From NCBI GenBank assembly GCA_035535295.1, contig DATLQI010000038.1, forward strand, positions 95,973 to 159,972: DNA of 64,000 nucleotides, in the 5' to 3' direction. Below the pieces are notes generated by a model. That model made no database searches and had not been told where the DNA came from. It saw only the letters and a list, made by a program, of their open reading frames with translations. The translations under genes were made by a program, and so were the position numbers. Every line of letters starts with the position of its first letter. Position 1 is the first letter of the stretch. This DNA comes from Solirubrobacterales bacterium. GTDB lineage: Bacteria; Actinomycetota; Thermoleophilia; Solirubrobacterales; 70-9. Shown here piece after piece: positions 17,818-57,180 of this stretch.

Positions 17818-17838
17818 GCCCTCCTCCTACCCGCCATC

Positions 17839-17866
17839 GGTTTTTCTTGACCGGGGGCCGGGGTAG
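17839..17866 (+). promoter_or_regulatory. SigB/SigF-type promoter GGTTT-N17-GGGTAG (baeRF operon)
   Basis: Strict motif match. About 30 nt of leader with AGGAGGAGG before the ATG at 17899. Confidence 0.65.
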
Positions 17867-17898
17867 CCGAAGCGGACCCGACTCAGGAGGAGGCGTCG

Positions 17899-18993
17899 AT
17901 GACCCAACCGAGCTTGGAGGCCGCAAAGGAGTTGAGCGAATGGCGCCCGCCGCTGGGCGTCCTTTCCGTTTTCCTCGGATTCGACCCGGCCGATCGCGGC
18001 GGCGCTTGGCGAACCGCCTTGCGCAACGACCTCGACTCGATCCTCGAGACCCAGCAGGAAGCCGAGCACGACCGCCGCGTGGCGCTGCGGGCGACGGCGA
18101 AACGGCTGACCGAACGCTTCGAAGACGGGGAGTTGCGACCGCCTCCTCGGGGCGAAGTCGGCTTCGTCGAAGTAGCCGAGAAGGAGGGGACCGAGCACTG
18201 GTTCGGGACCGCGGTGGCGCCGGTCGCCGACGCCTGCGTCGAGTTCGGCGTCGACCCGGTGGTGGCGCCGTTGTTGGACCTCTGCGGCCGCGGCGGCGCC
18301 CGGGGAGTAGCCCTGCTCTCCTCTGAGCGGGTGCGGCTGTTGCGCTGCGCCGAAGGCTCGCTGGAGGATCTCGAGGACTGGGAGCTGAGCGTGACCATGC
18401 TCGACTGGCGTGAGCGCAAATCCCAGAGCACCAACAACCCGGCCCGCGCCCAGGGGGTCAGCGCCTCCGGCCACGACCAGTTCGACGAACGGCTCGACCA
18501 CAACCGCCAGCGCTTTTTGGGCGAGTGCGGTGGCCTGGTCGTCCGCCGCCTCGAGGCGGACGGGATGGGCGAGCTGATCGTCTTTGGTCCCAGCAAGGAC
18601 GTGGAGAGCTTCAAATCCGGTTTTGGCTCGCCGCAGGCGACGCTGACCGTCGGCGGCGACCAAGATCTGATCTCGGTCCCCACGGGTAAGGTGGCCGAGG
18701 TCGTCTCCGAGGTTGTCAGCCGCCTCGACGAGGAGCGAGATCGCGCTGTCGTCGAGCGAGCCCTGGGCGAAGCGAAGGGGGGCAGTCGCGGCGCTGCCGG
18801 CCTGCAGGAGGTGAAAGAGGCGCTGGTCGAAGGCCGCGTCGACCACCTCGTCTTCGACGGCGGGATCGGCGAGGAGGGCGAGTCGCTGATCCGGGCGGCG
18901 ATGTCCAGCGGCGCTCGGATCACGGTGATCCGCGACGAGCTCGCGGCCCCGCTGGCCGAGGCCGATGGGGTCGCCGCGCTCCTGCGCTACTGA
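17899..18993 (+). CDS. eRF1-like bacterial release-factor-family protein (baeRF / Vms1-like)
   Basis: N-terminal PLGVLSVFLGFDP, central SGHDQFDERLDHNRQRFL (resembles the eRF1 GGQ-RF-HN segment) and C-terminal GVAALLRY, as I recall for baeRF families. Confidence 0.65.
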   Translation: MTQPSLEAAKELSEWRPPLGVLSVFLGFDPADRGGAWRTALRNDLDSILETQQEAEHDRRVALRATAKRLTERFEDGELRPPPRGEVGFVEVAEKEGTEHWFGTAVAPVADACVEFGVDPVVAPLLDLCGRGGARGVALLSSERVRLLRCAEGSLEDLEDWELSVTMLDWRERKSQSTNNPARAQGVSASGHDQFDERLDHNRQRFLGECGGLVVRRLEADGMGELIVFGPSKDVESFKSGFGSPQATLTVGGDQDLISVPTGKVAEVVSEVVSRLDEERDRAVVERALGEAKGGSRGAAGLQEVKEALVEGRVDHLVFDGGIGEEGESLIRAAMSSGARITVIRDELAAPLAEADGVAALLRY

Positions 18994-19017
18994 GTTCCCT
19001 TTATGTGACCGCAGTCC

Positions 19018-19044
19018 GGTTCGCAGCTCCTCCAGCGGGGGTAC
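19018..19044 (+). promoter_or_regulatory. SigB/SigF-type promoter, near match GGTTC-N16-GGGTAC (CsbD-like gene)
   Basis: Lies in the 93-nt gap after the baeRF stop. It argues against the track start at 19045. Confidence 0.45.
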
Positions 19045-19086
19045 GTGGAAAGGAATGAAGAGGACGAACCGAGAAGGAGAGCGAGC

Positions 19087-19587
19087 TTGAGCGAGCAAGA
19101 GAAGGTCGCCGGAGGCCCCTTGGGCAAGGTAGTTGGAAAAGCAAAGCAGATGGCCGGCGCGGTTCTCGACCGCGACGACCTGCACCGCGAGGGGAAGCTG
19201 CAGGAGGTCCAGGCCGACGCGGAGGCGGAAGCCGCAGCGAAGGCGGCGGAGGCCGAGCGCAAGGAAGAGGAAGCCGAGATCGAGGCCGAGCGGGCGGAGA
19301 CCGAGGCCGAGCGCCACGAGGTCGAACTCGAGGCTGCCGAGATCGAGGCCGAGGAGGAGGCCGAGCGTCGGCGGGCCGAAGAGGAGCGGGAAGCAGCCAA
19401 CCGCGCCCAGGCCGAGAAAGCCGCCGCCGAGCGCCAACGGCTGGCCGGTGAAGAGCGCGCCGCTGCCAAACGCCAACAGGCCGCGGCAGAGAAGGGCGCG
19501 GCGAAGGGCGAGGCAGCCGAGCTGCAGCGCGAAGCCGACCGGGCCGAAGAGGCTGCTGCCGCGATCGATCCCAAGGAGGAGAACTAG
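19087..19587 (+). CDS. CsbD-like stress protein fused to Glu/Ala/Arg-rich coiled-coil (hydrophilin-like)
   Basis: TTG at 19087 after GAAGGAGAG. GKVVGKAKQMAGAVLDRDDLHREGK fits the CsbD pattern. The remainder is low-complexity EAER repeats. Confidence 0.6.
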   Translation: MSEQEKVAGGPLGKVVGKAKQMAGAVLDRDDLHREGKLQEVQADAEAEAAAKAAEAERKEEEAEIEAERAETEAERHEVELEAAEIEAEEEAERRRAEEEREAANRAQAEKAAAERQRLAGEERAAAKRQQAAAEKGAAKGEAAELQREADRAEEAAAAIDPKEEN

Positions 19588-19589
19588 AG

Positions 19590-20207
19590 ATGGCGATGCC
19601 GACTGTTCCGAGGACGATCTTCAACTCGTCGCTGAAGCTGGCCCGGGCCCCGTTCGACGTCGCGCTGGGCGCGCTCGGTGGCTCCGATTCCGGGGCCAAA
19701 CACCTGATCGACCGGGCCGAAGCGGGCGCCCGCAGCGCCACCGGCGTCCTCTTCGCCGACCCGGAGCTGCGCGAAGAAGGCCGAGCGGCGCTGCTGGCGA
19801 CGAAAGAGCGCGAGCGGGCGACCGAGCTGCGCGAGAAAGCCGAGGTGCGGGAAGGCGAGGCCGAGGAGCGCCAGGCCCGGGCCGCCGAAGCGGCCGGGAA
19901 AGCGGCCGCGGAGGCGCGGCGCAACGCCGAGCAGGAGAAGCGCAAAGCGGAGAAGCGGCGGCGCGAACGCGAGGCACGGGCGAAGAAAGCCGAGGCGAAG
20001 AAGAAGGAGAAAACCGCCAAAGCCGCGAGCAAAGCCAAACGCGCCAACGCCAAAGCCGAGAAGACCGCGCAGCTGGAGAAGCTCGAGGCCAAGGAAGAGA
20101 GCATCGAGGCCAAGGAGGAGGCGGCGGCGACCGAGCGCGAGGCGAAGCGACTGCAGGAGGCCGCGGCCGCGGCCAAGGAGGCGCGGAAGAACGGTGACGG
20201 CAGCTGA
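19590..20207 (+). CDS. charged coiled-coil / hydrophilin-like protein
   Basis: RBS GGAGGAG. Lys/Glu/Ala-rich C-terminal two-thirds. Confidence 0.55.
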   Translation: MAMPTVPRTIFNSSLKLARAPFDVALGALGGSDSGAKHLIDRAEAGARSATGVLFADPELREEGRAALLATKERERATELREKAEVREGEAEERQARAAEAAGKAAAEARRNAEQEKRKAEKRRREREARAKKAEAKKKEKTAKAASKAKRANAKAEKTAQLEKLEAKEESIEAKEEAAATEREAKRLQEAAAAAKEARKNGDGS

Positions 20208-20706
20208 CGGGACCTTCTTCCACAGCTGTCCGGCCGAAGCCGACCCCGCCTCGCTGCTGGACCCCGACCAGCAAATAACCGAGCCCTGGGGTGAGCCCGA
20301 ACACGGCCCCTGCGACAAGTGCGGAGGCCGCGGCACGACCGAGTACGAGTGCTTCTCCTGCATGGAGGCGGGCTCGGACCCCGGCTGCCTCGTCTGCCAG
20401 GGGCGGGTTCGCTTCGAGCAGACCTGCCCCACCTGCCAGGGAACTGGCGAGATCCACCGCACCCGGCGCAAGGGCATCGCCGTCTTCCCCCGCCGCGAGG
20501 GGCTCTATCGCTACCTCGCCTGGAAAAGCGATTCCGAGCCCGAGGGCAAGGTCGTGGTCGAGGTGGCGGCGAGACTGAGCGATGACTGTGACCTCGACGC
20601 CGACCACGGGGCACTGCTGGTCTTCCCGGAGCGGGTGGTCGCGGTCGAGCCGCTCGACCCTGAGGTGGTCGAGGCGATCAGCGAACGCGTCGGCGAAGAG
20701 AACTGA
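20194..20706 (+). CDS. DnaJ-type zinc-finger-like protein (four CxxC motifs)
   Basis: CDKCGGRG, CFSC, CLVCQG and CPTCQGTG motifs. The start overlaps the upstream gene end. Confidence 0.55.
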   Translation: MTAADGTFFHSCPAEADPASLLDPDQQITEPWGEPEHGPCDKCGGRGTTEYECFSCMEAGSDPGCLVCQGRVRFEQTCPTCQGTGEIHRTRRKGIAVFPRREGLYRYLAWKSDSEPEGKVVVEVAARLSDDCDLDADHGALLVFPERVVAVEPLDPEVVEAISERVGEEN

Positions 20707-21129: not shown

Positions 21130-21159
21130 ATACCCTCCGACCGCGACGATTTATCAACC
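21130..21159 (-). promoter_or_regulatory. SigB/SigF-type -10 GGGTAT with 9-nt gap to ATG 21120; weak -35 (GGTTG at N19)
   Basis: Exact GGGTAT and the recurring 9-nt spacing, but the -35 spacing is out of range. Confidence 0.4.
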
Positions 21160-21173
21160 TAATCCGCGGGTAG
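21148..21173 (+). promoter_or_regulatory. SigB/SigF-type promoter, near match GATTT-N15-GGGTAG (CDGSH operon)
   Basis: 14 nt before the ATG at 21188. Confidence 0.45.
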
Positions 21174-22425: not shown

Positions 22426-23462
22426 GCGCTCCGCTCGAGCTCAGCTACGTGGTGCCGGTGCGCTGGCGGGGCGGCGAGCAGCGGGAGGATCTGGCGGCCT
22501 ACCTGGCCGAGATCGCGCCTCATTGCGCCGAGGTGATCGTCGTCGACGGCTCCCCAGCCGAGGTTTTCGCCGCCAACGCCCAGGCGTGGGGCGGGCTCGT
22601 CACCCACGTGCCGCCGCTGGAGGACGAGCGCTGGCTGATGGGGAAAGTCTCCGGGGTGCGGACCGGCGTCCGCCTCGCCTCGCACGAGCGGGTCGTGATC
22701 GCCGACGACGACGTCCGCTACGAACTCGAGGCGCTGCGCCGGACGGCCGCCCTGCTCGACGCCCACGACCTGGTGCGGCCGCAGAACTACTTCAGCTCGC
22801 TGCCCTGGCACGCCCGCTGGGATACTGCCCGCACCCTGCTCAACCGCTGCCTCGGCCGCGACTACCCGGGGACGTTGGCGGTGCGGCGCTCGCGCCTGCT
22901 GGCGATGGGCCTCTACGACGGCGACGTCCTCTTCGAGAACCTGGAGCTGATCCGCACCGTCCGCGCCCACGGCGGCAGCGACGTCGCCCCGCTCGACCTC
23001 TACGTCGCCAGGGTGCCGCCCTCGTCGGAGCACTTCTGGGGCCAGCGTACCCGCCAGGCCTACGACGACTTCGCCCTGCCGCTGCGGATGGCGCTCTGGC
23101 TCGCGGTCGTTCCGCTGCTGGCGCTGGACTGGCGCCGGAGACATGCCGACGGGACGAAAGTACCCCTATATGGAGGGAAATCGTCCCATCGGCCTCGTAG
23201 TGGGCTGATGGCGGCTGCTCTCTCGGTTGCGATGGCGGAGGTGGGACGCCGGCGCGCTGGCGGCGCCGCCTACTTCCCGGCCTCCTCTTCCCTCTTGGCG
23301 CCGGTCTGGGTCCTCGAGCGCGGGGTCTGCGCCTGGCTCGCGGTCCTCCAGCGCCTGCGCTTCGGCGGCGTCCGCTACGGCGACTCGGTCATCCCCGTCG
23401 CCGCCCACTCCGAGCGACAGATCCGCCGCCGGCTCGCCAGGCCGACGCCGGTCGGGAGCTAG
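22422..23462 (+). CDS. family 2 glycosyltransferase with C-terminal membrane segment; carries an in-frame 49-bp palindromic repeat
   Basis: GTG at 22422 overlaps the upstream stop (GTGA). SYVVPV...VIVVDGS...ADDD pattern. Confidence 0.75.
   Translation: MSAPLELSYVVPVRWRGGEQREDLAAYLAEIAPHCAEVIVVDGSPAEVFAANAQAWGGLVTHVPPLEDERWLMGKVSGVRTGVRLASHERVVIADDDVRYELEALRRTAALLDAHDLVRPQNYFSSLPWHARWDTARTLLNRCLGRDYPGTLAVRRSRLLAMGLYDGDVLFENLELIRTVRAHGGSDVAPLDLYVARVPPSSEHFWGQRTRQAYDDFALPLRMALWLAVVPLLALDWRRRHADGTKVPLYGGKSSHRPRSGLMAAALSVAMAEVGRRRAGGAAYFPASSSLLAPVWVLERGVCAWLAVLQRLRFGGVRYGDSVIPVAAHSERQIRRRLARPTPVGS
23145..23193 (+). repeat. 49-bp palindromic repeat, copy 1 (inside the GT2 coding sequence)
   Basis: 47/49 identical to 63622..63670. 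12-bp arms GCCGACGGGACG / CGTCCCATCGGC (one mismatch). 25-nt AT-richer loop GAAAGTACCCCTATATGGAGGGAAAT. Confidence 0.85.
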
Positions 23463-23827
23463 GCGGCGGGCTGGATCGCCTGGACGTCCGCGAGCGAGGC
23501 GTAGGGGAGCCTCTCCTCGAGCCCGGTCAGGCTGAGCACGCGGCGCACTCCCGGCGTTTCGCTGGGGATGAACTGAATCCGGCGCGCGTCCGGGCGCCCG
23601 AGCGCCGTGATCAGCAGGGCGATTCCGGTCGAGTCGAGGAACTCCAGCTTGCTGAGGTCGATCAGAACCGGCCGCTTCGAGTTGAGCGCCTCTTCCAGCT
23701 TCAGCTCGGCGGTGCCGGCGTTCGAGAGGTCGAGCTCTCCCTGCAGGCAGCAGCGAATGCGTTCGCCTTCTTCAAGCTGCTCGACGACCAGTAACCCGTC
23801 CTGGGTTCGAGAATCGATGATCGGCAC
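23459..23827 (-). CDS. STAS-domain anti-sigma-factor antagonist
   Basis: LDLSKLEFLDSTGIALL motif. GTG start after GGAGG. Confidence 0.85.
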   Translation of the reverse strand: MPIIDSRTQDGLLVVEQLEEGERIRCCLQGELDLSNAGTAELKLEEALNSKRPVLIDLSKLEFLDSTGIALLITALGRPDARRIQFIPSETPGVRRVLSLTGLEERLPYASLADVQAIQPAA

Positions 23828-23954
23828 TTCGGAAACCTCCGTTTTGAATTGATCGGAAGTCCCGGGGCGCCCCGCGGTGGGCGTACACGGTCTTGCCTTG
23901 GACTAGTGTCCAACCGGCGCCGCGGGGCGGCACCGGCGAACCCATCTGGGGATG

Positions 23955-24119
23955 CTACCGCAGTCGGGGAACCGTCGTGGAAATCGGCGAAAGCCTTTTT
24001 CGCGCAGCGCGGACTCGCTGCAGGATCCTGTCGCGCTTCAGAGCGGGTCCGAGCTCGGGTCCGCGAATCTCCTCCTGGGGACGGGCCAAGGGCTGGGTGC
24101 TGGGTGCTGGGGCGGGCAT
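23955..24119 (-). CDS. possible small ORF (54 aa) in the long STAS leader
   Basis: ATG at 24119 is 9 nt after GGAGGAAAG. No family recognised. Weak. Confidence 0.25.
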   Translation of the reverse strand: MPAPAPSTQPLARPQEEIRGPELGPALKRDRILQRVRAARKRLSPISTTVPRLR

Positions 24120-24259
24120 TTCTTCTTTCCTCCGGCTTTGGAAAATTGGGTGATCTGGTGGATCTGGTACCTCTCCCAATCTCCGTGCGACGCCGTGAGA
24201 AGTGAGCGGTTTTACCTCCCGACACAAGCCGCGCTGAGACGGTTATGCCGAGAGTCTGA

Positions 24260-24285
24260 TTACCCAGTGATCCGGTCCACAAACC
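24260..24285 (-). promoter_or_regulatory. SigB/SigF-type promoter GGTTT-N15-GGGTAA
   Basis: Strict match on the minus strand, about 130 nt upstream of the sORF and about 430 nt upstream of the STAS start. Confidence 0.6.
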
Positions 24286-24374
24286 TTGCCTTTCCGGAGC
24301 CCCTCAGTGACATCGTGCACGAAGCCGTTTCGATCCCCGGGTAGGCGGGAACACGCATTCGCAAGAGGTAGCTG

Positions 24375-25307
24375 ATGAAACACGCCGGTTTCCAACACGA
24401 AGCCCTCATCTACGACGGCCCCTCGGAGTACCTGGCCGGGACCGTCCCCTTCCTCCAGGCTGGAATCGAGTCCGGTCAGCGCATTCTGGTGGCTGTCGGA
24501 CCGGAGCAGACCGAGTGGCTGCGGCGGGAGCTGGGCGCCGACGCCAGGAGGGTCAGCTTCACCGACATGCGCGAAGTCGGACGCAACCCGGCGACGATCA
24601 TCCCCCTCTGGCGCGACTTCGTCGAGGCGGCCGGGGGCTGCCCGGTGCGCGGAATCGGCGAACCGGTCTGGGCCTCGCGCAGCGACGCGGCGCTGGAGGA
24701 GTGCCGGCGCCACGAGTCCCTGCTCAACTTCGCCTTCGACGGCGGACCCGCCTGGGACCTGCTCTGCCCCTACGACGCCGCCTCGATCGGCGACGACATC
24801 ATGGAGAAGGTGGCCCACTCGCACCCCTGCCTGCAGCGCGAAGGCCGCCACGAGCCCAGCGCCACCTACGAGCCCGACCCCGACTGCTTTGCCGGCGAGC
24901 TGTCGGTGCCGGCCGCGAGGCCGGAGGTCTTCGAGTTCTCCGTCACCGATCTCGGCGACGTTCGAAGCCGGGTCACCGCCGCGGCCGAGGAAGTCGGGAT
25001 GGACCCCGGCGGAGTGGCGGACCTGGTCGTCGCCGCGAGCGAGCTGGCCGCCAACAGCGTCATGCACGGCGGCGGCAGCGGCACCCTGCGCCTCTGGCGC
25101 GAGGACGGGCGGGTCCTGGTCGAGGTCGAGGACCGCGGCCGGATCGAGGACCCCCTCGTCGGCCGCCTCCGTCCCAGCATCTCGCAGGAGGGCGGCCGCG
25201 GCCTCTGGCTCGCCAACAAGCTCTGCGACCTGGTTCAGATCCGCTCCGGCGAGGCGGGCACGACGGTGCGCCTGCACGCGCTGGCGCCGGAGATGGCCTA
25301 CGTCTAG
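24375..25307 (+). CDS. MEDS domain + HATPase anti-sigma-factor-like regulatory protein (RsbA-like)
   Basis: N-terminal HEALIYDG...FLQAGIESGQRILV (MEDS). C-terminal ELAANSVMHGGG...GRGLWLANKLCD (HATPase_c-like). Confidence 0.75.
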   Translation: MKHAGFQHEALIYDGPSEYLAGTVPFLQAGIESGQRILVAVGPEQTEWLRRELGADARRVSFTDMREVGRNPATIIPLWRDFVEAAGGCPVRGIGEPVWASRSDAALEECRRHESLLNFAFDGGPAWDLLCPYDAASIGDDIMEKVAHSHPCLQREGRHEPSATYEPDPDCFAGELSVPAARPEVFEFSVTDLGDVRSRVTAAAEEVGMDPGGVADLVVAASELAANSVMHGGGSGTLRLWREDGRVLVEVEDRGRIEDPLVGRLRPSISQEGGRGLWLANKLCDLVQIRSGEAGTTVRLHALAPEMAYV

Positions 25308-25334: not shown

Positions 25335-25340
25335 GGGTAG
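25335..25340 (+). promoter_or_regulatory. GGGTAG -10-like element, 9 nt before ATG 25350 (no convincing -35)
   Basis: Same -10 sequence and 9-nt spacing as the strict sites. The -35 position reads GGCGT. Confidence 0.3.
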
Positions 25341-25349: not shown

Positions 25350-26300
25350 ATGCCAGACAACGATCCCCAGACCCAGCTCGTCAAGTACCTGACCGACGTC
25401 CACTCGATCGAGGAACAGGCGCGAGTGCAGATGGAACGCGCCCCGAAGCTCGTCGAGGGCGCCTTCGCCGAGGCCTTCCAGCGCCACCTCGGTGAGACCG
25501 AATCCCAGGAGCAGCGCGTGCGCGAGCGCCTCGAGGCGCACGACGCCTCGCCCTCGAAGATCAAGGACGTCGCCGGCGCGGCCGGCGGCTTCGGGATGGT
25601 CCTCTTCGCCCGCTCCCAGCCCGACACGCCGGGCAAGCTGGCGATGCACGCCTTCTCCTACGAGCACATGGAGGTCGCCGCCTACGAGCTGCTGGGGATC
25701 GCCGCCCGCGAAGCCGGCGACGAGGAGACCGCTGCGATGGCGGCGACGATCGCCGACGAGGAGCGCGAGATGGCCGGCCGGATCGCCGCCAGCTGGGACG
25801 AAGCGGTCGAGCAGGCGCTGGCCCGGGTCGAACCCGACGACCTCGGCGACACGCTGAACACCTACCTCGCCGACGTCCACGCGCTCGAGGGTCAGTCGAA
25901 GAAGCTGCTGGAGAAAAGCCGCGAGCTCGACGTTCCGGAAGCGCTCCGCTCCGCCCTCGACCACCACCTGCGGGAGACCGAAGGCCACCTGGAGAAAATC
26001 GAGCGCCGGCTCGACGACCGCGGCGCCACCCCCTCGGCGATCAAGGACGCGATGCTCCGCCTCGGCGCCCTCAACTGGGGCGCCTTCTTCGCCGCCCAGC
26101 CCGACACCCCCGCCAAGCTCGCTGGCTTCGCCTACGCGGTCGAGAACCTCGAGGTTGCCGCCTACGAGCTGCTTTTCCGCGTCGCCCGCCGCGCCGGCGA
26201 CGGGGAGACCGTCACCCTCGCCGAATCGATCCTCGGCGAGGAGCAGGCGGCGGCGAAATCGGTCGCCGACCAATGGCCGGTCTCGATGTCGGTTGCCTGA
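25350..26300 (+). CDS. tandem DUF892 (YciE/YciF ferritin-like) domain protein
   Basis: Two repeats of the LVKYL-DVHSIE / LNTYLADVHALE ... H-ETE-Q/H ... EVAAYELL pattern. Confidence 0.8.
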   Translation: MPDNDPQTQLVKYLTDVHSIEEQARVQMERAPKLVEGAFAEAFQRHLGETESQEQRVRERLEAHDASPSKIKDVAGAAGGFGMVLFARSQPDTPGKLAMHAFSYEHMEVAAYELLGIAAREAGDEETAAMAATIADEEREMAGRIAASWDEAVEQALARVEPDDLGDTLNTYLADVHALEGQSKKLLEKSRELDVPEALRSALDHHLRETEGHLEKIERRLDDRGATPSAIKDAMLRLGALNWGAFFAAQPDTPAKLAGFAYAVENLEVAAYELLFRVARRAGDGETVTLAESILGEEQAAAKSVADQWPVSMSVA

Positions 26301-26878: not shown

Positions 26879-27367
26879 TCAGGCCTCCTCGTAGGGGTCT
26901 TTCTCGCCGGCCAGCTGCAGCGCGCACTCCTTGGTCTCGCTGAAGTGCCGTTCCTGAATCGGCAGCGCCCACTCGACCAGTTCGGAGACCTGGTCCTCGC
27001 CGGCCTGCTCGTTGAGCTTTTTCAGCACCGCCCAGTGCCCGACCTCGCCGGCCTCGGCCATGGTCATGAACTCGAAGCCGTCGAGCCCGTCGGCGTCGTC
27101 GCCGAGGTAGGTGTCCATCATCTCGGACGCCTCGCCTTTGGTCTCTTTGGCCTTTTCGAGGATCGCGGTCTTCTTGCCGTCGCGCTGCTCGGCGACCTCG
27201 GTGCCGCGGCGCGCGGTCTCCTCGGCCTCCTCGCGCATCTGCCGCAGTTTCTGGGCGACGCTGTCGTCGTCGACGAGGCCCTCGACTTTCTCGGTCGCTT
27301 TCGTCGCCGCTTCGGCCAGCCCGATCACCTCCGCGAGCTTCTCCTCCAAGGTCGTCAACTCGGCCAT
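26879..27367 (-). CDS. acidic helical protein, ferritin-like guess
   Basis: RBS GGAGGAAG. GC3-rich codons. No firm family. Confidence 0.55.
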   Translation of the reverse strand: MAELTTLEEKLAEVIGLAEAATKATEKVEGLVDDDSVAQKLRQMREEAEETARRGTEVAEQRDGKKTAILEKAKETKGEASEMMDTYLGDDADGLDGFEFMTMAEAGEVGHWAVLKKLNEQAGEDQVSELVEWALPIQERHFSETKECALQLAGEKDPYEEA

Positions 27368-48695: not shown

Positions 48696-50920
48696 GCAGC
48701 CGACCGACTGATCGCGAGCTCCCCGGGCGCCTCGACATCCGAGGCGCCCTGGGGGCGAATCGCGAGCACGACCAGGTCATCGCGCAGCGTTCCTGAGCTG
48801 CGGCCGACGGCGTCGGCGCGAAGCCGCTCGGTTACCTCGTCGAGCTCGAGGCCGCAGAGGGCCTGCGTCATCTCGGCGAAGCTCTCGGGGCCCTGGTGGG
48901 AAGAGGTCGGACCGGCCTCCAACCAGCCGTCGGTGCAGAGGGCAACGGTGTTGGTCGCCCTGAGAACGCACTCGTGGCGCTCGATGTTGGCCTCGCGCCA
49001 GGCGCCGAGCACCGAACCGCCGCCGAGCAGTCGTGGCCCGTCTGGGCCCGCCAGTACAGCCGGTGGATGTCCCGCCGAGGCGAGCGTCAGCTTCCACTCG
49101 TCGCCATCGCGACGCAGGCAGGCGAGCATCCCCGTCGCGAAGTCATTGAGGCTTTCGCCGGTCAGCAGCAGCTCGTTGACGCGCCGCAGTACCTCGTCGG
49201 GCTCGGCGATCTCCCGGGTCAGCCCGCGCACGGAATGGCGCACCGCGACCGAGACGCCGGCAGCGGTGCTGCCCTTGCCGGCGACGTCGCCGACGAGGAT
49301 CCAGCAGCATTTCTCGCTCGGGATCACGTCGTAGAGGTCGCCCCCGACCTCGATCCCCTCGCCGGCCGCCTCGAAGACCACAGAGATGTCGAGCCCCGGC
49401 ACCTTCGCCGGCCGCGGCGGTCGCAGGCCGCGCTGCAGGTTTTTCGCCACCCGGTCGCGCTCCCGGTAGAGGCGGGCGTTGTCGAGCGCCAGCGCCGCCC
49501 GTTCTCCCAGCTCGGAGAGGAACTCGAGGTCGCCGTGGTCGTAGCGGAGGTCGCCGTGGGCGTGGAGGAAAGAGAGGGCGCCGAGGGTGCGACCGCGGGC
49601 GGTGAGCGGGACCACCGCGGCGGAGTTGTAGCCGGCGTCGTGCATCAGCTGCAGGTGGTCGGCGTTCTGGGAGACCTTGTCGACCACCTCCGGCGCTTTC
49701 AGGTCGCGCCAGACCATCGGCTGGTTCAGCCGCAGCACCTGCGCCACCGGGTGCTCGCCGGCCGGGTCGAGCGGCTGTTCGCGCCGGATCTTTTCCAGGC
49801 GCGCTGCCATCTCCGGATTGGCACCGGCGACGACGCTGTCGCCATACCAGCCGTCGGGACGGCGGAAGTCGATCAGGCAGAGCTCGGCCAGCTCCGGCAC
49901 TGCGGTGGAGACGATCGTCCGCGCCGTCTCGACCGGGTCGAGCGAGCTGTCGAGGAGGCGGCTGGCGGCGACGAGGAACTCCTGCGCGCGCCGCCGCCGC
50001 ACCTCGGCGGTGATGTCGCGGGCGACAACCGAGGCACCGATCAGCCCCCGCAGCGGACTGCGGATCGGGGAGACGGTGAGCGAGACGGCAATCCGAGCCC
50101 CGTCGGCGCGGAGCCGTTCGGTCTCGTAGGTCTCAAGCCGTTCGCCGCGCTTAATCCGATCGAGGATCACCATCTCCTCGTTCTTGTGGTCGGGGGGGAC
50201 GAGGAAGGAGACGTGGCGCCCGATCGCTTCCTCGGTGCTGTAGCCATAGAGCCGCACCGCGGCGGGGTTCCAGGTGGTGACGATCCCGTCCAGATCCTTG
50301 CTCAAAACAGCGTCCTGGGTCCCGCGCACGACCTCGGCCAGGTGCTGGCGGAAGCGCTCGGCCTCAGCGCTCTTCGCCTCCGCTCGGCGCCTGGCGATGA
50401 AGGTGCCGAGCTGATCGGCAAAGCTCGCCAGCAGCTCCATCAGCTCCTCGGACTGGGGATTGAAGGAGGTGGTGTGGAACTCGGCCACCGCGAGGACGTT
50501 CTCCGGCGAGCCGGTGGGCACGGGAATTGCCAGTGCCGCCTCCAGGCCCAGTTCGGCTGAGGTTTCGAAGCGCGGCGTCGGCGTTGGGTAGGCCTTGTAG
50601 TTGGGGGCGAGGGCGATCTGCCCGCTGCCCCAAGCGTCGCCGGGTAGCCCGGTGCCGCGCATGAAATCGATTTCGCGGCTGCGCCGCCAGAGCGGCCGGG
50701 CGTCGAGGTCAGGGGTGCTCCAGCCCGAGACCAGCCGCAACGGCTCCTTCTCGCCGGTCACTTCCCACATCGCTCCCGCCTCCCAGCGGAGCAGATTGGC
50801 GACGATTTCGAGGAAGCGGGGAGCCACCTGGTCGAGGGAGTCACCTTTGATCAAGCGGGCCGCGAGCTCACGCTGACTCCTCAGGTAGCGCCACAGCTCC
50901 AGTTCCTGCGGCTCTTGCAT
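48692..50920 (-). CDS. GAF-PAS-GAF-PP2C (SpoIIE/RsbU-type) serine phosphatase
   Basis: PAS segment (DGIVTTWNPAAVRLYGYS). PP2C segment (GGDLYDV...VGDVAGKG). ATG at 50920; a TTG at 50947 is possible. Confidence 0.85.
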   Translation of the reverse strand: MQEPQELELWRYLRSQRELAARLIKGDSLDQVAPRFLEIVANLLRWEAGAMWEVTGEKEPLRLVSGWSTPDLDARPLWRRSREIDFMRGTGLPGDAWGSGQIALAPNYKAYPTPTPRFETSAELGLEAALAIPVPTGSPENVLAVAEFHTTSFNPQSEELMELLASFADQLGTFIARRRAEAKSAEAERFRQHLAEVVRGTQDAVLSKDLDGIVTTWNPAAVRLYGYSTEEAIGRHVSFLVPPDHKNEEMVILDRIKRGERLETYETERLRADGARIAVSLTVSPIRSPLRGLIGASVVARDITAEVRRRRAQEFLVAASRLLDSSLDPVETARTIVSTAVPELAELCLIDFRRPDGWYGDSVVAGANPEMAARLEKIRREQPLDPAGEHPVAQVLRLNQPMVWRDLKAPEVVDKVSQNADHLQLMHDAGYNSAAVVPLTARGRTLGALSFLHAHGDLRYDHGDLEFLSELGERAALALDNARLYRERDRVAKNLQRGLRPPRPAKVPGLDISVVFEAAGEGIEVGGDLYDVIPSEKCCWILVGDVAGKGSTAAGVSVAVRHSVRGLTREIAEPDEVLRRVNELLLTGESLNDFATGMLACLRRDGDEWKLTLASAGHPPAVLAGPDGPRLLGGGSVLGAWREANIERHECVLRATNTVALCTDGWLEAGPTSSHQGPESFAEMTQALCGLELDEVTERLRADAVGRSSGTLRDDLVVLAIRPQGASDVEAPGELAISRSAA

Positions 50921-50996
50921 CCGGCTCACTCTCTCACGCGGCCACAACCGCTACGCGACATCTCTTAGGGCCTCGGGTGACAAATTACGCAAGTCT

Positions 50997-51023
50997 CGTT
51001 TTCCCCCATTGGACCAAGGGTAG
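50997..51023 (+). promoter_or_regulatory. SigB/SigF-type promoter CGTTT-N16-GGGTAG
   Basis: Strict GTTT/GGGTA match, 48 nt before the ATG at 51072. Confidence 0.6.
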
Positions 51024-51071: not shown

Positions 51072-51266
51072 ATGTTTCGGTGTGACAACTGCGGAAGTGG
51101 ATACTCGGCACAGGCAGCGTCCTCGTGGACTTCTTGCCCGCGCTGTTTGGCGAGAGAGCGGGTCCAGGTTCCCCTCACCTTTGAGCTCGGTTGGCAGCGG
51201 CAGGGGAGCAAGGCGCAGGCAGTGCCGGCGGCCGGTACCTCCGACGCCCGGGCCGCCGCGCGTTAA
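51072..51266 (+). CDS. small zinc-ribbon protein (64 aa)
   Basis: CDNCG...CPRC pair. RBS-like GGGAGA. Confidence 0.5.
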   Translation: MFRCDNCGSGYSAQAASSWTSCPRCLARERVQVPLTFELGWQRQGSKAQAVPAAGTSDARAAAR

Positions 51267-51286
51267 GCCTCCCGCGGCGGGGGTAC
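51261..51286 (+). promoter_or_regulatory. SigB/SigF-type promoter, near match CGTTA-N15-GGGTAC
   Basis: Upstream of the DJ-1/PfpI gene. The -10 abuts a 12-bp-arm palindrome. Confidence 0.4.
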
Positions 51287-51331: not shown

Positions 51332-51913
51332 ATGTCCGACCGCCTGCAGGGAAAGAAGATCGCCTTCCTGACCGCCAACGAGGGCGTCGAGCAAGTGGAG
51401 TTGGTCGAGCCGCTGGAAGCGGTGCGCGAGGCCGGGGCTGAAGCGGAGTTGCTGGCGCCCGAAGCCGGCGAGGTCCAAGCTTTCAACCATCTCGACAAGG
51501 CCGACACCTTCGAGGTCGACCGCACCGTCGGCGAGGCCGATGCCGGCGAATACGACGGGCTCGTCCTCCCCGGCGGGGTCGCCAACCCCGACCAACTGCG
51601 GACGAAGCCGGAGGCGCTCGAGTTCGTGCGCGGGTTTTTCGCGGCGGGCAAGCCGGTCGGCGTGATCTGCCACGGACCCTGGACCCTGATCGATGCCGGC
51701 GTCGCCAAGGGCCGCACCCTCACCTCCTGGCCGAGCCTGGAGACCGACCTGCGCAACGCCGGCGCCGAGTGGGTCGACGAGGAGGTCCACGTCGACCAGG
51801 GCCTCGTCTCCAGCCGCAAACCGGACGACCTCGAAGCCTTCAAGGCGAAGATCGTCGAGGAGTTCGCCGAGGGCGTCCACGAGGGCCAGCGCCGGAAAGC
51901 GAGCGTGAACTGA
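51332..51913 (+). CDS. DJ-1/PfpI family protein
   Basis: ATG at 51332 after GAGGAGGG. ICHGPW nucleophile elbow. Confidence 0.85.
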   Translation: MSDRLQGKKIAFLTANEGVEQVELVEPLEAVREAGAEAELLAPEAGEVQAFNHLDKADTFEVDRTVGEADAGEYDGLVLPGGVANPDQLRTKPEALEFVRGFFAAGKPVGVICHGPWTLIDAGVAKGRTLTSWPSLETDLRNAGAEWVDEEVHVDQGLVSSRKPDDLEAFKAKIVEEFAEGVHEGQRRKASVN

Positions 51914-52377: not shown

Positions 52378-53037
52378 TCAATTTGCAGAGGACTCCGCAA
52401 ACAGCGGCTCGAAATCCAGCTCCGCTATCGATTCGACCACTTGCGAGGCGCCCGCATCGCGTAGCTCCGCCTCCGAAAAGCCGCCGGTGAGGACGGCGAG
52501 GGTGGGCACCCCGGCCGCTTTCGCCGCTTTCACGTCCCAGACCGAGTCACCGACCATCACCGCGGGGTTGTCGTTGCCCGCCTTCTCGAGTGCGGCAAGG
52601 ACGAGGTCGGGGGCGGGCTTGGTGCTCTCGACGTCGGCGGAGGTGGTCCAATCGTCGATCAGCTCCCGCGCCTCCAGCAGGTCGAGGTAGTGGTCGACCT
52701 CCTCCTGCTTGGCGGAGCTGGCGAGGATCACGCTGGCGCCGGCGTCGCGCAACTTCTCGATCAGCTCTCGCGCCCCCTGCATCGGCTCGACTTCGTCGAT
52801 CAGCTCTCCGTAGGCCTCCGCCTCGGCTTCGCGGATCGCGTCCCCCTCCTCGGCCGCGGCCTCCTCGCCAATCAGGGCGTCGAGGATCTGGTCGCCCCCC
52901 ATGCCGATGTGACGGTGGACCTTCCACATCTGTACGGGGTGGCCGTGGGCGTGCAGTGCCCGGTGCCAGGCGAGGGCGTGGTGATAGTTGGTGTCGACGA
53001 GGGTCCCGTCGACGTCCAGGATCGCGTTCAGCGGCAT
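52378..53037 (-). CDS. HAD-superfamily hydrolase
   Basis: ILDVDGTLVDT motif I. GDSVWD motif. Confidence 0.85.
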   Translation of the reverse strand: MPLNAILDVDGTLVDTNYHHALAWHRALHAHGHPVQMWKVHRHIGMGGDQILDALIGEEAAAEEGDAIREAEAEAYGELIDEVEPMQGARELIEKLRDAGASVILASSAKQEEVDHYLDLLEARELIDDWTTSADVESTKPAPDLVLAALEKAGNDNPAVMVGDSVWDVKAAKAAGVPTLAVLTGGFSEAELRDAGASQVVESIAELDFEPLFAESSAN

Positions 53038-53050
53038 GGATGCGGGGTAC
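53025..53050 (+). promoter_or_regulatory. SigB/SigF-type promoter, near match CGTTC-N15-GGGTAC, 10 nt to ATG 53061
   Basis: The -35 lies inside the divergent HAD gene start region. Confidence 0.4.
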
Positions 53051-53060
53051 CCGGGCTGAG

Positions 53061-53799
53061 ATGAAACATGTGCGAATCGGTTGTTCGGGCTGGGTCTACG
53101 ACTCCTGGCGCCACGGCATCTACGAAGGGGTGCCGCAGGCGCGCTGGCTCGAACGCTACGCCGAGATCTTCGACACCGTCGAGGTCAACAACACCTTCTA
53201 CCGCCTGGTCAAGCGCGAGGTGGTGGAAGGGTGGGTCGAGCGCACCCCGCCCGGCTTTCTCTTCGCGGTCAAGGGCAGTCGCTACCTCACCCACATGAAA
53301 AGGCTGCGCGGGATCGAGCCGGGGCTCGCCCGCTTCTGGGAGCCGCTGGAGCCGTTGCGCGAGAGCGGCAAGCTGGGGCCGCTGCTGTGGCAGCTGCCCG
53401 GCAACTTCCACCGCGACGACGCCGTCCTCGCCGCGGCGCTAGAGCTGTTGCCCCCAGCGCGCCACTGCTTCGAGTTCCGGCACTCGAGCTGGTTCGTGCC
53501 AGCGGTGCGGCGGATCCTCGAGGACCACGGCGCCTCGCTGGTGATTCCCCACGACGGCAGGCGGGACCTGCCGGAGGCGCGGCCGGCCGGGGGGGGTCGC
53601 TTACCTGCGGCTGCACCACGGCGCCCGTGGCCGCAACGGCAACTACTCGAAGACCGAGCTCGACCACTGGCGGCGGCGGATTGCCGCTTGGCGTTCCCGC
53701 CGCGAAGTCTTCGCCTACCTCAACAACGACTGGGAGGAATTCGCTCCCCCCAACGCGATCACCTTGCGGCAGGGACTGTCGGTTCCGCAACTGGTGTAA
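53061..53799 (+). pseudogene. DUF72 (UPF0759) family gene with +1 frameshift in a G8 tract
   Basis: The N-terminal 177 codons are in frame 0 (IGCSGWVYDSW...LVIPHDGRR). The conserved C-terminus (VAYLRLHHGARGRNGNYS...FAYLNNDWEEFAP) continues in frame +1 after GGGGGGGG at 53589..53596. Confidence 0.7.
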
Positions 53800-53820
53800 T
53801 CCGGCGGGGACGCCGGGTAT
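53793..53820 (+). promoter_or_regulatory. SigB/SigF-type promoter, near match GGTGT-N17-GGGTAT, 9 nt to ATG 53830
   Basis: Consensus GGGTAT and the recurring 9-nt spacing. Confidence 0.45.
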
Positions 53821-53829: not shown

Positions 53830-54021
53830 ATGTCAGCGATAAAGAAGAACCTCACCAAGAAGGTGGCCAAGGCCGCCGCCAAGCACACCGCTCACGGCAC
53901 CGCCTCGAAGTTGAAGCGGGACCCGATGCGCGCCGCGACCCTGCTCGGTCTCGGGGGCGCGCTCGGCGCCGCAGCCGGCTGGATGGCCGCCCGCTCCGCC
54001 TCGGTCAGCACCGGTTCTTGA
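53830..54021 (+). CDS. small Lys-rich protein with C-terminal hydrophobic segment (63 aa)
   Basis: Start fixed by the -10 spacing. No family recognised. Confidence 0.45.
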   Translation: MSAIKKNLTKKVAKAAAKHTAHGTASKLKRDPMRAATLLGLGGALGAAAGWMAARSASVSTGS

Positions 54022-54069: not shown

Positions 54070-54300
54070 TCAGGAAGAGAGGCGCGAGCGAAGAAGGTCC
54101 TTACCCTGCTCGGCGCCCTTGCGGCTCGTCTCCTGCGCGCGGCGGAAGAAGTCCGCAAGATCAGAGTCGCCCTCGCGCTCCGCGTCTTCGACGTAGGTCT
54201 CGAGCCGCAGCACGTTGCTGAGGCACTGCTCGGTGAACCAGATGACGTTGTAGTCCTTGTCCTTGGTGCCGGTGATCTGCCCAGCCTCTTGGGTGCCCAT
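54070..54300 (-). CDS. small cytosolic hypothetical protein (76 aa)
   Basis: RBS GAGGAGGAG. GC3-rich codons. Confidence 0.55.
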   Translation of the reverse strand: MGTQEAGQITGTKDKDYNVIWFTEQCLSNVLRLETYVEDAEREGDSDLADFFRRAQETSRKGAEQGKDLLRSRLSS

Positions 54301-54336: not shown

Positions 54337-54362
54337 GTACCCCGAGGGAAGGGTGGAAAACG
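54337..54362 (-). promoter_or_regulatory. SigB/SigF-type promoter CGTTT-N15-GGGTAC
   Basis: Strict GTTT/GGGTA match. 36-nt leader to the ATG at 54300. Confidence 0.6.
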
Positions 54363-54371: not shown

Positions 54372-54398
54372 AGTTTCGTGCCTGCGCGGCAGGGGTAC
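54372..54398 (+). promoter_or_regulatory. SigB/SigF-type promoter AGTTT-N16-GGGTAC, 9 nt to ATG 54408
   Basis: Strict GTTT/GGGTA match, back-to-back with the minus-strand promoter. Confidence 0.6.
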
Positions 54399-55782: not shown

Positions 55783-55785
55783 GTA

Positions 55786-56721
55786 CTACTCGCGCCGCGT
55801 TTCCGCCGTCGCCGGTTCGGAGCGTCGCAGCGCCTCCAGCACCTCCTCGGCCAGCTGCGAACCGTCCTCGGGCCGCAGCGGCGTCGCGTTGACGCGGAAG
55901 ACGACCGCGTCGCCGTCGAGCTCCTCCAGGGAGACGCTGGGCTTGTAGCGGGTGGGGACGCTGATCGCCTGCAGCAGGCGTTGCTCGATCGCGCGCGGGC
56001 TCGCCTGGGCCGGGAAGCGGACGCGAACGTCGACCTTGTCGGGCTCGCGCAGCGGCACGACGACGAGGCTGAGGAGGACGTTGTTCGGCACCAGCAGCCG
56101 GTCGGCTCCCTGGCTCAGGGTCGTGTAAAAGAGGCCAAGTGAGGTGACGGTCCCCTCGATGGAGCCGGCGAGGGCGCCGCCGACCAGGCGCACCCGTTCG
56201 CCGACCCGGAACGGCCGCGTGCTCTGCAGGACGATGCCGGCAAAGATCCCGCCCAGCGCCTGCTGCGCAGCCAGCCCCAGCAGCACCGCGGTGAAGGCCC
56301 CGCCGACGGCAAGGGTGCTGGCGTTGACCCCGGCGATCCGCAGGGCGAGGACCACCACCGCCGTCATTGCCAAGAGGCGGACGACGAAGCCGGCGGTGCC
56401 GGCGGTGGCGGGGTCGAGGCGCCGGTAGAGCCGGGGAGAGAGCCCCCGCACCAGCCAGTGCACCGCGGCCGAGCCGACGATGATGAGGACGACGACCGTC
56501 CCGATTCGGATCCACTGCCCGTAACCGGGCGCGATCTCGCGCCGGTGCCCGTAGACGAAGAGAGTGCCGGCGATCACCAGCAATGCCAGCAGTAGGCCGC
56601 CGAACTGGCGTTTGGAGAATCGCGGCGCCAGCTCGTCACCGAGGCCGAGCGAGTGCCAGGCGTGGCTGCGGGTCTCGAACAGCTCCCGGGGGAGCCGGGG
56701 ACGGCGCGGAGCGGGGGACAT
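55786..56721 (-). CDS. MscS-family mechanosensitive channel
   Basis: TM3-like GGAFTAVLLGLAAQQALGGIFAGIVL, followed by RPFRVGERV. Confidence 0.85.
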   Translation of the reverse strand: MSPAPRRPRLPRELFETRSHAWHSLGLGDELAPRFSKRQFGGLLLALLVIAGTLFVYGHRREIAPGYGQWIRIGTVVVLIIVGSAAVHWLVRGLSPRLYRRLDPATAGTAGFVVRLLAMTAVVVLALRIAGVNASTLAVGGAFTAVLLGLAAQQALGGIFAGIVLQSTRPFRVGERVRLVGGALAGSIEGTVTSLGLFYTTLSQGADRLLVPNNVLLSLVVVPLREPDKVDVRVRFPAQASPRAIEQRLLQAISVPTRYKPSVSLEELDGDAVVFRVNATPLRPEDGSQLAEEVLEALRRSEPATAETRRE

Positions 56722-56731
56722 CAGGAAGCGG

Positions 56732-56757
56732 CTACCCCAGGGCGGGGGCGCTTAAGC
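56732..56757 (-). promoter_or_regulatory. SigB/SigF-type promoter, near match GCTTA(A)-N15-GGGTAG, 10 nt to ATG 56721
   Basis: The -35 overlaps the stop codon of the upstream STAS gene. Confidence 0.4.
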
Positions 56758-57114
56758 CGTCAGCGCGGCGAGGGCATCGTCCCGGGTCAGGTGGACCGGG
56801 ATCGAAAGCTCCAGGCCGGTGATCTCGAGCACGCGGCGGACCTGGTCGTTCCCGCTGCAGATGACCAGGGCGCGGCCGTTTTCGCCGCCGTCGAGGCGCT
56901 GCCAGGCGCGGACGATGAGGGCGATGCCGGTGGAGTCGATGAACTCGCAGCCAGAGAGGTCGATCAGCACCGAGCCCTCGTCGCTGGCCAGTACCTCGTC
57001 CAGTGGACCCTCCAATTCAGGAGCGGTGCTGAGGTCGAGCTCGCCACGGACCGCGACGGTCCGGACGCCGTGCTCGAGATCTCCCACTTTTACCTCGAAC
57101 GGGACTGGATTCAC
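56752..57114 (-). CDS. STAS-domain anti-sigma-factor antagonist (RsbV-like)
   Basis: CEFIDSTGIALIV motif. GTG start. Confidence 0.85.
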   Translation of the reverse strand: MNPVPFEVKVGDLEHGVRTVAVRGELDLSTAPELEGPLDEVLASDEGSVLIDLSGCEFIDSTGIALIVRAWQRLDGGENGRALVICSGNDQVRRVLEITGLELSIPVHLTRDDALAALTA

Positions 57115-57153
57115 GGGACGATGCTACCGCAGGCGAGCAAGATGTCTGCATGG

Positions 57154-57180
57154 CGTTTTGCGGTCCACCGGCAGGGGTAA
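57154..57180 (+). promoter_or_regulatory. SigB/SigF-type promoter CGTTT-N16-GGGTAA
   Basis: Strict GTTT/GGGTA match, about 118 nt upstream of the anti-sigma kinase-like gene. Confidence 0.55.

Follow-up and report, generated by a model that had tools for sequence, protein, structure and literature searches.

Dense and conserved predicted SigB/SigF-type promoters beside a SigB/F-family sigma factor gene in an uncultured Solirubrobacterales bacterium

Strict GTTT-N15-17-GGGTA sites in the window

We analysed 64,000 nucleotides (nt) of DNA from a Solirubrobacterales bacterium (the window; GenBank assembly GCA_035535295.1, contig DATLQI010000038.1, positions 95,973 to 159,972 of the forward strand) for a bipartite element, GTTT-N15-17-GGGTA, that is predicted to form promoters of the SigB/SigF type. 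The gene map was derived from codon-position GC content and refined by inspection, Pfam and external gene calls on the source contig. The part of the window from 17.5 to 57.3 kilobases (kb) contains 55 genes with approximately 39 heads of transcription units, 27 of which carry a predicted promoter, 12 of them strict; a sigma factor gene of the SigB/SigF/SigG family lies at 58261-59079 on the minus strand. The rest of the window holds 24 genes and one weak site. The strict sites are as follows (window positions and strand; aa, amino acids; ORF, open reading frame).

17840-17865 (+), GTTT-N17-GGGTA, upstream of the baeRF-family gene 17899-18993
24261-24284 (-), GTTT-N15-GGGTA, upstream of a leader of approximately 130 nt, a 54-aa small ORF (sORF, 24119-23955) and a STAS gene (23827-23459)
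28793-28818 (-), upstream of a sulfotransferase and metallophosphoesterase operon, ATG at 28779, 13 nt on
32396-32421 (-), GGGTA-N10-ATG (32385), cytochrome P450, predicted leaderless
32673-32696 (-), GGGTA-N10-ATG (32662), 76-aa protein without Pfam family, predicted leaderless
37571-37596 (-), GGGTA-N10-ATG (37560), UDG and topoisomerase IB operon, predicted leaderless
43755-43779 (+), operon of a ferritin-like gene, a luciferase-like oxidoreductase and a GNAT acetyltransferase
47928-47951 (+), DUF892 protein 47994-48695
50998-51022 (+), 64-aa zinc-ribbon-like ORF 51072-51266
54338-54361 (-), 76-aa protein 54070-54300
54373-54397 (+), GGGTA-N10-ATG (54408), 76-aa membrane peptide, predicted leaderless, back to back with the site at 54338-54361
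57155-57179 (+), RsbW-like HATPase_c_2 anti-sigma-type kinase 57208-58098

Scanning both strands of the window for the strict motif thus returned 12 matches, at the same 12 places as had been given in an earlier note on this DNA, whose ranges were 1 nt wider on each side. In 100 dinucleotide-preserving shuffles of the whole window the mean was 0.18 strict sites and the maximum 2, so that the earlier estimate of approximately 0.4 sites by chance was of the right order of magnitude. Intergenic DNA has a GC content of 62%, versus 69% overall. Shuffling the intergenic DNA alone (35 segments, 4.3 kb in total) gave 0.06 expected strict sites versus 12 observed, and the lower intergenic GC content therefore does not account for their number.

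As the earlier note had also stated, every strict site is upstream of and oriented towards a gene: all 12 lie between called genes and are aimed in sense orientation at the adjacent start codon, at a promoter-compatible distance of 10-141 nt. Orientation is informative for the four sites between tandem genes, each of which has the correct one; the remaining eight are in gaps between divergent genes, each near its own target gene. The GGGTA core alone shows the same bias, 25 of its 53 window copies falling within the approximately 10% of the sequence that is intergenic, and sites with one mismatch are approximately 18 times denser in intergenic than in coding DNA. Altogether, the window contains 12 exact sites and about 15 with one or two mismatches.

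The two cores are separated by 15-17 nt (13-15 nt between hexamers), and this bipartite consensus agrees, as proposed previously, with those published for Bacillus subtilis sigma-B (GTTTAA-N12-14-GGG(A/T)A(A/T); PMC8346170) and for Mycobacterium smegmatis SigF (GTTT-N14-19-GGGTA, PMC4694148, or GGWWT-N16-17-GGGTAY, PMC7693655). Half of the strict sites (6/12) read GGTTT, the number stated before. Unlike in the M. smegmatis consensus, there is no Y preference after GGGTA in the strict sites of the window, the next base being G in six, C in four, A in two and T in none.

Distance to the start codon and leaderless mRNAs

GGGTA is followed by ATG or GTG at exactly N10 in 12 of its 53 window copies, compared with 0-4 copies at any other spacing from 5 to 17, and the modal distance between GGGTA and the start codon in relatives is also exactly 10. 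In the open complex of Staphylococcus aureus sigma-B, solved by cryo-electron microscopy, position -11, which is flipped, corresponds to the A of GGGWAW (PMC11156646). With the A of GGGTA at -11, a spacing of N10 would place the first base of the start codon at +1, and mRNAs of this class are thus predicted to be leaderless. Leaderless mRNAs are common in actinobacteria, and GGGTA -10 elements have been mapped at transcription start sites (PMC6448022). The assignment would give precise start-codon calls for such genes. The baeRF-family gene is arranged differently: its ATG at 17899 lies 33 nt downstream of the site at 17840-17865 and is preceded by a GGAGGAGG ribosome-binding site.

Conservation in relatives

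Conservation was evaluated in two sets of relatives comprising approximately 160 loci, 80 around the sigma gene and 80 around the alcohol dehydrogenase (ADH) gene at 33.8-35.0 kb, with each locus reaching up to 10 kb either side of the chosen gene. The sigma-region set represents 80 species-level genomes, all from uncultured Solirubrobacterales (Thermoleophilia, Actinomycetota), and the 80 ADH-region loci derive from soil and rhizosphere metagenomes; closed chromosomes among the relatives measure 2.5-2.8 megabases (Mb). The sigma-region relatives contain 269 strict sites in 1.38 Mb, versus 12.7 in shuffles and 2-46 matches for control patterns with permuted half-sites or wrong spacings in the same DNA. 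Of these sites 256 are intergenic, 228 are aimed at a called start within 350 nt, and five lie deep in coding sequence. The density is the same in the ADH-region set (182 strict sites in 1.0 Mb). Counted over window and relatives, the spacing is N15 in 95, N16 in 128 and N17 in 58 sites, while spacings of N9-11 and N21-23 are 50 times rarer in the relatives. Upstream of the orthologues of individual window genes, the strict motif occurs as follows.

RsbW-like gene, 61/62 orthologous loci
Zinc-ribbon ORF, 42/42
76-aa ORF at 54070, 31/32
Membrane peptide, 28/28
DUF892 gene, 14/17
Sulfotransferase, 20/21
76-aa ORF at 32432, 39/45 strict and 43/45 relaxed
UDG, 26/29 strict and 29/29 relaxed
Ferritin-like gene, 14/25
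Cytochrome P450, 5/8

At the site 24261-24284, TTT and GGGTA are invariant in 15 of 15 aligned sequences; the site 17840-17865 is outside all relatives' loci compared. In footprint alignments of the DNA upstream of orthologues, the two cores GTTT and GGGTA do not vary, in contrast to the spacers between them. Control genes of the sigma-region set (sigma, ArsR-like, the STAS gene at 56752, GH15, CtaG, the ORF at 54982 and a small helix-turn-helix (HTH) gene at 52071) have no strict sites and almost no GGGTA upstream. Most controls of the ADH-region set (two short-chain dehydrogenases (SDRs), an acyltransferase, an S9 peptidase, a carbonic anhydrase and others) also lack strict sites upstream; the exceptions are operon-internal genes, which carry them in some relatives (epimerase 7/60, ADH 2/73, topoisomerase IB 3/35). 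Because the same motif recurs upstream of the same orthologues and is missing from the controls of the sigma-region set, the sites are, as judged from sequence conservation, very probably functional promoters and not chance matches.

Clustering of the sites

The window is part of a 319-kb metagenome contig in ENA, from which we added a left flank of 9.2 kb (glycosyltransferases, sulfotransferases) and a right flank of 9.6 kb (trigger factor, ClpP, ClpX, ValRS). No strict site is present in the 43 kb of flanking DNA formed by the window ends and the added flanks. The 12 strict sites are confined to 39.4 kb of the 82.8 kb examined, for which a range test gives a probability of approximately 0.002, and the statement of the earlier note that the sites are concentrated in one region thus holds locally. 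The relatives likewise lack sites in the 10 kb beyond the sigma gene: loci restricted to this far side count none. The local clustering is therefore real and conserved.

The SigB/F-family sigma factor

The following gene was examined as the potential source of the factor that reads the sites.

58261-59079 (-), SigB/SigF/SigG-family sigma gene, 273 aa, with Pfam sigma-70 regions 2, 3 and 4

A SigB/F-family sigma gene had been reported at 58258-59079, and the family assignment is borne out by a score of 263.2 bits against the SigB/SigF/SigG model TIGR02980 (cut-off 234.35). Its scores against the equivalog models of B. subtilis SigB and mycobacterial SigF fall short of the cut-offs (NF005514: 250 versus 372 bits); it is a member of the SigB/F/G family and the equivalog of neither. 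The closest solved structure is the open complex of S. aureus sigma-B (8x6g_H, E = 6e-51). When the alignment to this chain was read against the DNA contacts reported for the complex (PMC11156646), 10 of 11 contact residues were found to be kept. All five contacts to the -35 GTTT are identical (S235/Q236/M237/R241/R244, corresponding to S242/Q243/M244/R248/R251 here), as are five of the six contacts to GGG and -11A (R74, F86, R97, R100 and R110). Across 80 species the sigma protein is 86-98% identical and always flanked by promoter-bearing genes.

The sigma gene and the RsbW-like gene are convergently oriented, and an ArsR-like gene lies upstream of the former. The sigma gene is preceded by a leader of approximately 110 nt (59080-59200, -) that is conserved across 80 genomes and contains GCTATGGTTG, then GCGCTGCAC.GCTTCGGACTGACGCTCTCAGGGCAGCGACG, with a -10-like TATGGT; RNAalifold predicts a weak stem of eight pairs, one of them covarying. 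The region upstream of the sigma gene is thus probably a housekeeping-type promoter with a conserved 5' untranslated region, and the factor looks constitutively transcribed and controlled after translation, as has been proposed for M. smegmatis SigF (PMC6448022).

In a distant clade, whose ADH is approximately 74% identical (loci L131, L135, L138, L139, L141 and L155), SigB/F paralogues with 29-47% identity to the window sigma lie a few kb from the ADH gene. Because of these paralogues near the ADH gene, the SigB/F family is seen to be duplicated or rearranged in related lineages.

A second, unrelated sigma factor of the extracytoplasmic function (ECF) type with a C-terminal DUF6596 is encoded inside the island, downstream of a YCII-domain gene (45934-47575, -); this unit has no GTTT..GGGTA site.

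Partner-switching regulators

The gene set for partner switching (GHKL kinase anti-sigma factor, STAS antagonist and PP2C phosphatase) is complete in the window.

24375-25307 (+), RsbA-family anti-sigma factor (HATPase_c_2), NF041045 350 bits
57208-58098 (+), RsbW-like HATPase_c_2 kinase, 296 aa
56752-57087 (-), STAS antagonist, divergent from the RsbW-like gene
23459-23827 (-), STAS gene behind the sORF
30740-31096 (+), STAS gene
48692-50929 (-), GAF-PAS-GAF-PP2C (SpoIIE) phosphatase

Three of these regulator units, namely the RsbW-like gene, the RsbA-family gene and the sORF-STAS unit, carry the promoter themselves, which suggests feedback. The GAF-PAS-GAF-PP2C phosphatase is the likely input of the module. 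Its orthologues have GGGTA within 200 nt upstream on the same strand in 23 of 41 relatives, and none is there in the window; the phosphatase may be under the same sigma factor in some lineages.

The leader between the strict site 24261-24284 and the STAS gene (24250-24119, -; approximately 130 nt) is more conserved than nearby coding DNA, with the invariant blocks CTCACTTCTCACGG, CGGAGATTGGGAGAGG and TTGTGTCGGGAGGT. It is followed by a Shine-Dalgarno sequence and the conserved 54-aa sORF (24119-23955), which shows third-position variation and a conserved TAG stop. RNAalifold predicts a 5' hairpin with three covarying pairs and a second domain that never varies. Rfam gave no match, either for the whole window at gathering thresholds or for 23800-24300 at E values up to 1. 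Located ahead of the gene for an anti-sigma antagonist, leader and sORF are candidates for a new cis-regulatory RNA and a small protein; in a tentative reading, which we consider rather unlikely, they would act as a new cis-regulatory input into partner switching.

Variant and near-consensus sites

Beyond the strict sites, the region contains the following variant and near-consensus sites, given with their conservation in relatives where orthologous loci were compared.

17828-17852 (-), weak -35 GGTC, then GGGTA-N10-ATG, proline-rich 80-aa ORF 17575-17817
19019-19043 (+), GTTC-N16-GGGTA, Glu/Ala-rich ORF 19045-19587
21131-21155 (-), near-consensus, GGGTA-N10-ATG, MpsC/DUF2294 gene, back to back with 21148-21172 (+)
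21148-21172 (+), GATT-N16-GGGTA, operon of CDGSH and haem-oxygenase-like genes
24327-24351 (+), variant GTTT-N16-GGGAA, RsbA-family anti-sigma gene 24375-25307, GTTT..GGGNA kept in 15/16 relatives
25335-25339 (+), -10 element alone, GGGTA-N10-ATG, tandem-DUF892 protein 25350-26300, GGGTA in 19/28
27408-27432 (-), GCTT-N16-GGGTA, 162-aa gene 26879-27367, 30/30 relaxed and 6/30 strict
30326-30350 (-), GTTG-N16-GGGTA-N10-ATG, DUF1360 gene 29788-30315, kept in 25/29
35869-35893 (-), variant GTTT-N16-GGGGA, SDR-ADH-epimerase operon (35825 down to 32759), kept in 27/30
51262-51285 (+), GTTA-N15-GGGTA, DJ-1/PfpI gene 51332-51913, GGGTA in 31/32 and strict in 20/32
53026-53049 (+), GTTC-N15-GGGTA-N11-ATG, DUF72 gene from 53061 (frameshifted), GGGTA in 27/28
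53048-53071 (-), GGGTA-N10-ATG with a -35 atypical in this genome, HAD hydrolase 52378-53037, GGGTA in 33/37 and strict in 17/37
53794-53819 (+), GTGT-N17-GGGTA-N10-ATG, 63-aa ORF 53830-54021, GGGTA-N10/11-start in 38/40
56733-56757 (-), GCTT-N16-GGGTA-N11-ATG, MscS-like channel 55786-56721, GGGTA in 56/57

The near matches listed in the earlier note exist and several are conserved in relatives; the sites at approximately 14085 and at 47912 remain weak. The note had missed the two conserved variants 24327-24351 (+) of the GGGAA type and 35869-35893 (-) of the GGGGA type. M. smegmatis genes under SigF control likewise include cases with functional GGGAA or other variant -10 elements (PMC4694148). 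An overlapping GGGTA at 24339-24343 (+) upstream of the RsbA-family gene was rejected as the element in question, being found in none of 16 relatives; the conserved element is GTTT-N16-GGGAA. Nearly all gene labels of the earlier note are backed by Pfam or NCBIfam, including DUF72 (plus strand from 53061). Its CsbD-like label was not upheld, since the Glu/Ala-rich ORF 19045-19587 has no match in a Pfam scan.

Proposed mechanism and alternative explanations

These results argue that the sites are very probably promoters of the SigB/F type, and that the sigma factor encoded at 58261-59079 is probably their reader. In the proposed mechanism, RNA polymerase with a group-3 sigma factor of the SigB/SigF family, most likely the one at 58261-59079, would recognise the sites. 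Region 4 of the sigma factor would read GTTT at -35, and regions 2 and 3 would recognise the GGG in double-stranded form and flip the -11 base, the A of GGGTA, out of the helix. Transcription would start 11 nt downstream of that A. In about a dozen genes this position coincides with the A or G that opens the start codon, and the remaining genes would have leaders of 30-140 nt with a Shine-Dalgarno sequence. The activity of the sigma factor would presumably be set post-translationally by partner switching with parts from the same region: the GAF-PAS-GAF-PP2C phosphatase would dephosphorylate STAS antagonists, which would in turn bind the two kinase-type anti-sigma factors (RsbA-family and RsbW-like) and thereby set the sigma factor free. 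The RsbW-like, RsbA-family and sORF-STAS units would feed back through their own promoters, with the sigma gene itself on its apparent housekeeping-type promoter.

The cargo is of a stress or quiescence type, with ferritin/DUF892, DJ-1/PfpI and MscS proteins, UDG and topoisomerase IB, P450, oxidoreductases, a baeRF/Balon-like protein and many small proteins. The "dormancy" role named in the earlier note is inferred from this gene content, and its term "unannotated" for the regulon is trivially true, since metagenome-assembled genomes carry no promoter annotation.

Several observations weigh against this interpretation. GTTT..GGGTA was found upstream of the sigma gene neither in the window nor in any of 79 relatives (0/79). 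Furthermore, no anti-sigma gene shares an operon with the sigma gene, unlike the arrangement of B. subtilis sigB and mycobacterial usfX-sigF; co-transcription with an anti-sigma factor and positive autoregulation, both of which are thus missing here, are common in the family and not strictly defining. Within the -10 pocket, residue F79 is replaced by R87 in the window sigma. The near sites 14085, 17828, 19019, 21131, 21148 and 47912 are outside the fetched loci and have no comparative support. The genome may also encode further SigB/F paralogues outside this region, which could be responsible for reading a part of the sites or even all of them. Finally, we infer which sigma factor binds, where transcription starts, which signals induce it and in which direction the feedback runs, with start sites and sigma dependence deduced from the DNA itself.

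The alternative that deserves most attention is that the sites are SigB/F-type promoters read by one or more paralogues encoded outside the window, so that the sigma factor at 58261-59079 would not be the regulator, or not the sole one. The nine SigB homologues of Streptomyces coelicolor cross-recognise GTTT..GGGTA promoters (PMC8346170), SigB/F paralogues with 30-47% identity are encoded close to the ADH gene in more distant relatives, and the lack of co-transcription and autoregulation just described would fit a regulator encoded elsewhere. However, the 83 kb examined contain a single SigB/F gene, genome size in this clade is small (2.5-2.8 Mb), the high identity of the sigma factor across 80 species goes along with its constant position next to promoter-bearing genes, and its DNA-contact residues match those of sigma-B. 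We therefore regard sole or shared control by an outside paralogue as improbable and favour the window sigma as reader of the sites.

It is far less credible that, instead of being a promoter, the bipartite motif is bound by a transcription factor (repressor or activator) or constitutes a repeated genetic element. Several HTH and ArsR-like genes lie in the region and the start-site assignment comes from sequence, both of which leave room for a transcription factor. The motif, however, is asymmetric, neither a palindrome nor a direct repeat, and both halves and their spacing equal a known sigma consensus. Moreover, GGGTA lies at a fixed 10 nt from start codons, which fits initiation rather than an operator; an operator or a repeat element would show no fixed distance. 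The spacers share no sequence between sites, so that these are not copies of a repeat. That the sites are chance or compositional matches can practically be dismissed as already refuted: AT-richer intergenic DNA does raise the frequency of GTTT, but intergenic shuffles yield hardly any sites, permuted half-sites are 6 to 130 times rarer in relatives, and orthologous positions are conserved across species while the spacers diverge.

Promoters of the ECF or FliA/WhiG type were also considered and dropped, their consensus sequences being unlike GTTT..GGGTA. ECF-type promoters have a GGAAC..GTT-like consensus, and those of the FliA/WhiG type read TAAA..GCCGATAA.

Comparison with known systems

The closest parallel to the SigB/F-type promoters described here is the SigF regulon of M. 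smegmatis, which has the same consensus and likewise keeps much of the regulon in one cluster beside the sigma gene. In their Table 1, Singh et al. 2015 give almost all genes between MSMEG_1766 and MSMEG_1804 (sigF) as SigF-dependent, with GTTT-N15-17-GGG(T/A/C)A promoters (PMC4694148). The cargo of that cluster includes a cytochrome P450 (1775; motif 9 nt from the start codon), a type I topoisomerase (MSMEG_1784), short-chain dehydrogenases, many small hypothetical proteins, and rsbW3 (1787) beside the STAS gene rsfA (PMC4694148). It resembles the cargo found here (P450, topoisomerase, SDRs and small proteins) by annotation alone. Many of the M. smegmatis promoters are 8-11 nt from the annotated start codon, so that the mRNAs are leaderless. 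The arrangement of the window RsbW-like gene, with a strict promoter and divergent from a STAS gene, is like that of rsbW3-rsfA in layout only; RsbW3, an additional and SigF-dependent RsbW paralogue, functions in M. smegmatis as a booster that binds RsbW1 (Oh et al. 2020, PMC7693655). The present system differs in its lineage (Thermoleophilia/Solirubrobacterales, uncultured, genome of approximately 2.5-2.8 Mb) and, unlike rsbW1-sigF, in a sigma gene that is neither co-transcribed with an anti-sigma factor nor preceded by a SigF-type promoter.

With sigma-B of B. subtilis and S. aureus, the system shares the sigma family, the consensus (GTTTWW ~N14 GGGWAW), the RsbW/RsbV/PP2C logic and overlapping classes of cargo, e.g. 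DJ-1/PfpI-type and ferritin/Dps-type proteins. In contrast to these species, there is no rsbV-rsbW-sigB operon and no autoregulation here, no stressosome genes (RsbR/S/T) were seen in the window, and the anti-sigma factors are of the RsbA family (with a MEDS-like N-terminus) or have a long C-terminal extension. Leaderless mRNAs are predicted to be common and the promoters are concentrated in one chromosomal region, again unlike B. subtilis and S. aureus. S. coelicolor SigB and its eight homologues, which act in osmotic and oxidative stress and in differentiation, are similar in that they belong to a high-GC actinobacterium, use GTTT/GNNT..GGGTA(C/T) promoters and are accompanied by an RsbA-family anti-sigma factor. 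There, nine paralogues have scattered targets, whereas one family member in 83 kb has dense local targets here.

The window holds at least 27 separately promoted units, which would all be under one SigB/F-type sigma factor, beside the sigma gene and the partner-switching genes. One might read this as a clustering of the regulon that is itself a conserved and selected feature, distinct from operon formation, and, if the cargo is orthologous, as an ancient "stress island" across Actinomycetota; we consider this extended reading tentative and rather unlikely. When topoisomerase IB homologues were searched for Mycobacterium loci, all 120 matches listed were close Solirubrobacterales relatives.

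With the proposed regulon, the promoter code of SigB/SigF and its control by partner switching would reach the class Thermoleophilia as well. This type of system is already known from Bacillus, Streptomyces and Mycobacterium, and the understanding of such systems is unchanged; the promoters here are unusually dense and well conserved, and occur in an abundant uncultured soil lineage. Hundreds of close relatives were found in soil metagenomes, and the regulation of this clade is almost unknown since it is uncultured. The regulon could serve as a marker set for soil metatranscriptomes, e.g. during drying, rewetting or starvation, and supplies a list of approximately 40 candidate stress or quiescence genes, many of them for small proteins of unknown function.

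Other features of the region

The two 76-aa proteins encoded downstream of the strict sites 32673-32696 and 54338-54361 were compared as possible paralogues, which was ruled out as BLASTP gave no alignment.

Downstream of the near-consensus site 19019-19043, three successive Glu/Ala/Lys/Arg-rich ORFs (19045-20706, +) are without a Pfam family and look like coiled-coil or late-embryogenesis-abundant (LEA)-like proteins.

The DUF72 gene (53061-53800, +) matches its Pfam profile with 159 bits over profile positions 3-139 of 217. It changes frame near 53570-53600 in a G-rich run, and the other frame continues to approximately 53800, which points to an assembly indel or else to a pseudogene; in three contigs the external gene caller placed no gene at this position.

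The baeRF-family protein 17899-18993 (+) has a sub-threshold match to the "MSMEG_1130 family ribosome hibernation factor" model (118 bits versus a cut-off of 480), and may thus be a distant relative of the hibernation factor Balon (PMC10901736).

The genes for the family-4-like UDG and the bacterial topoisomerase IB (35909-37560, -) overlap by 4 nt in a predicted leaderless operon, and the pair is kept in approximately 30 relatives.

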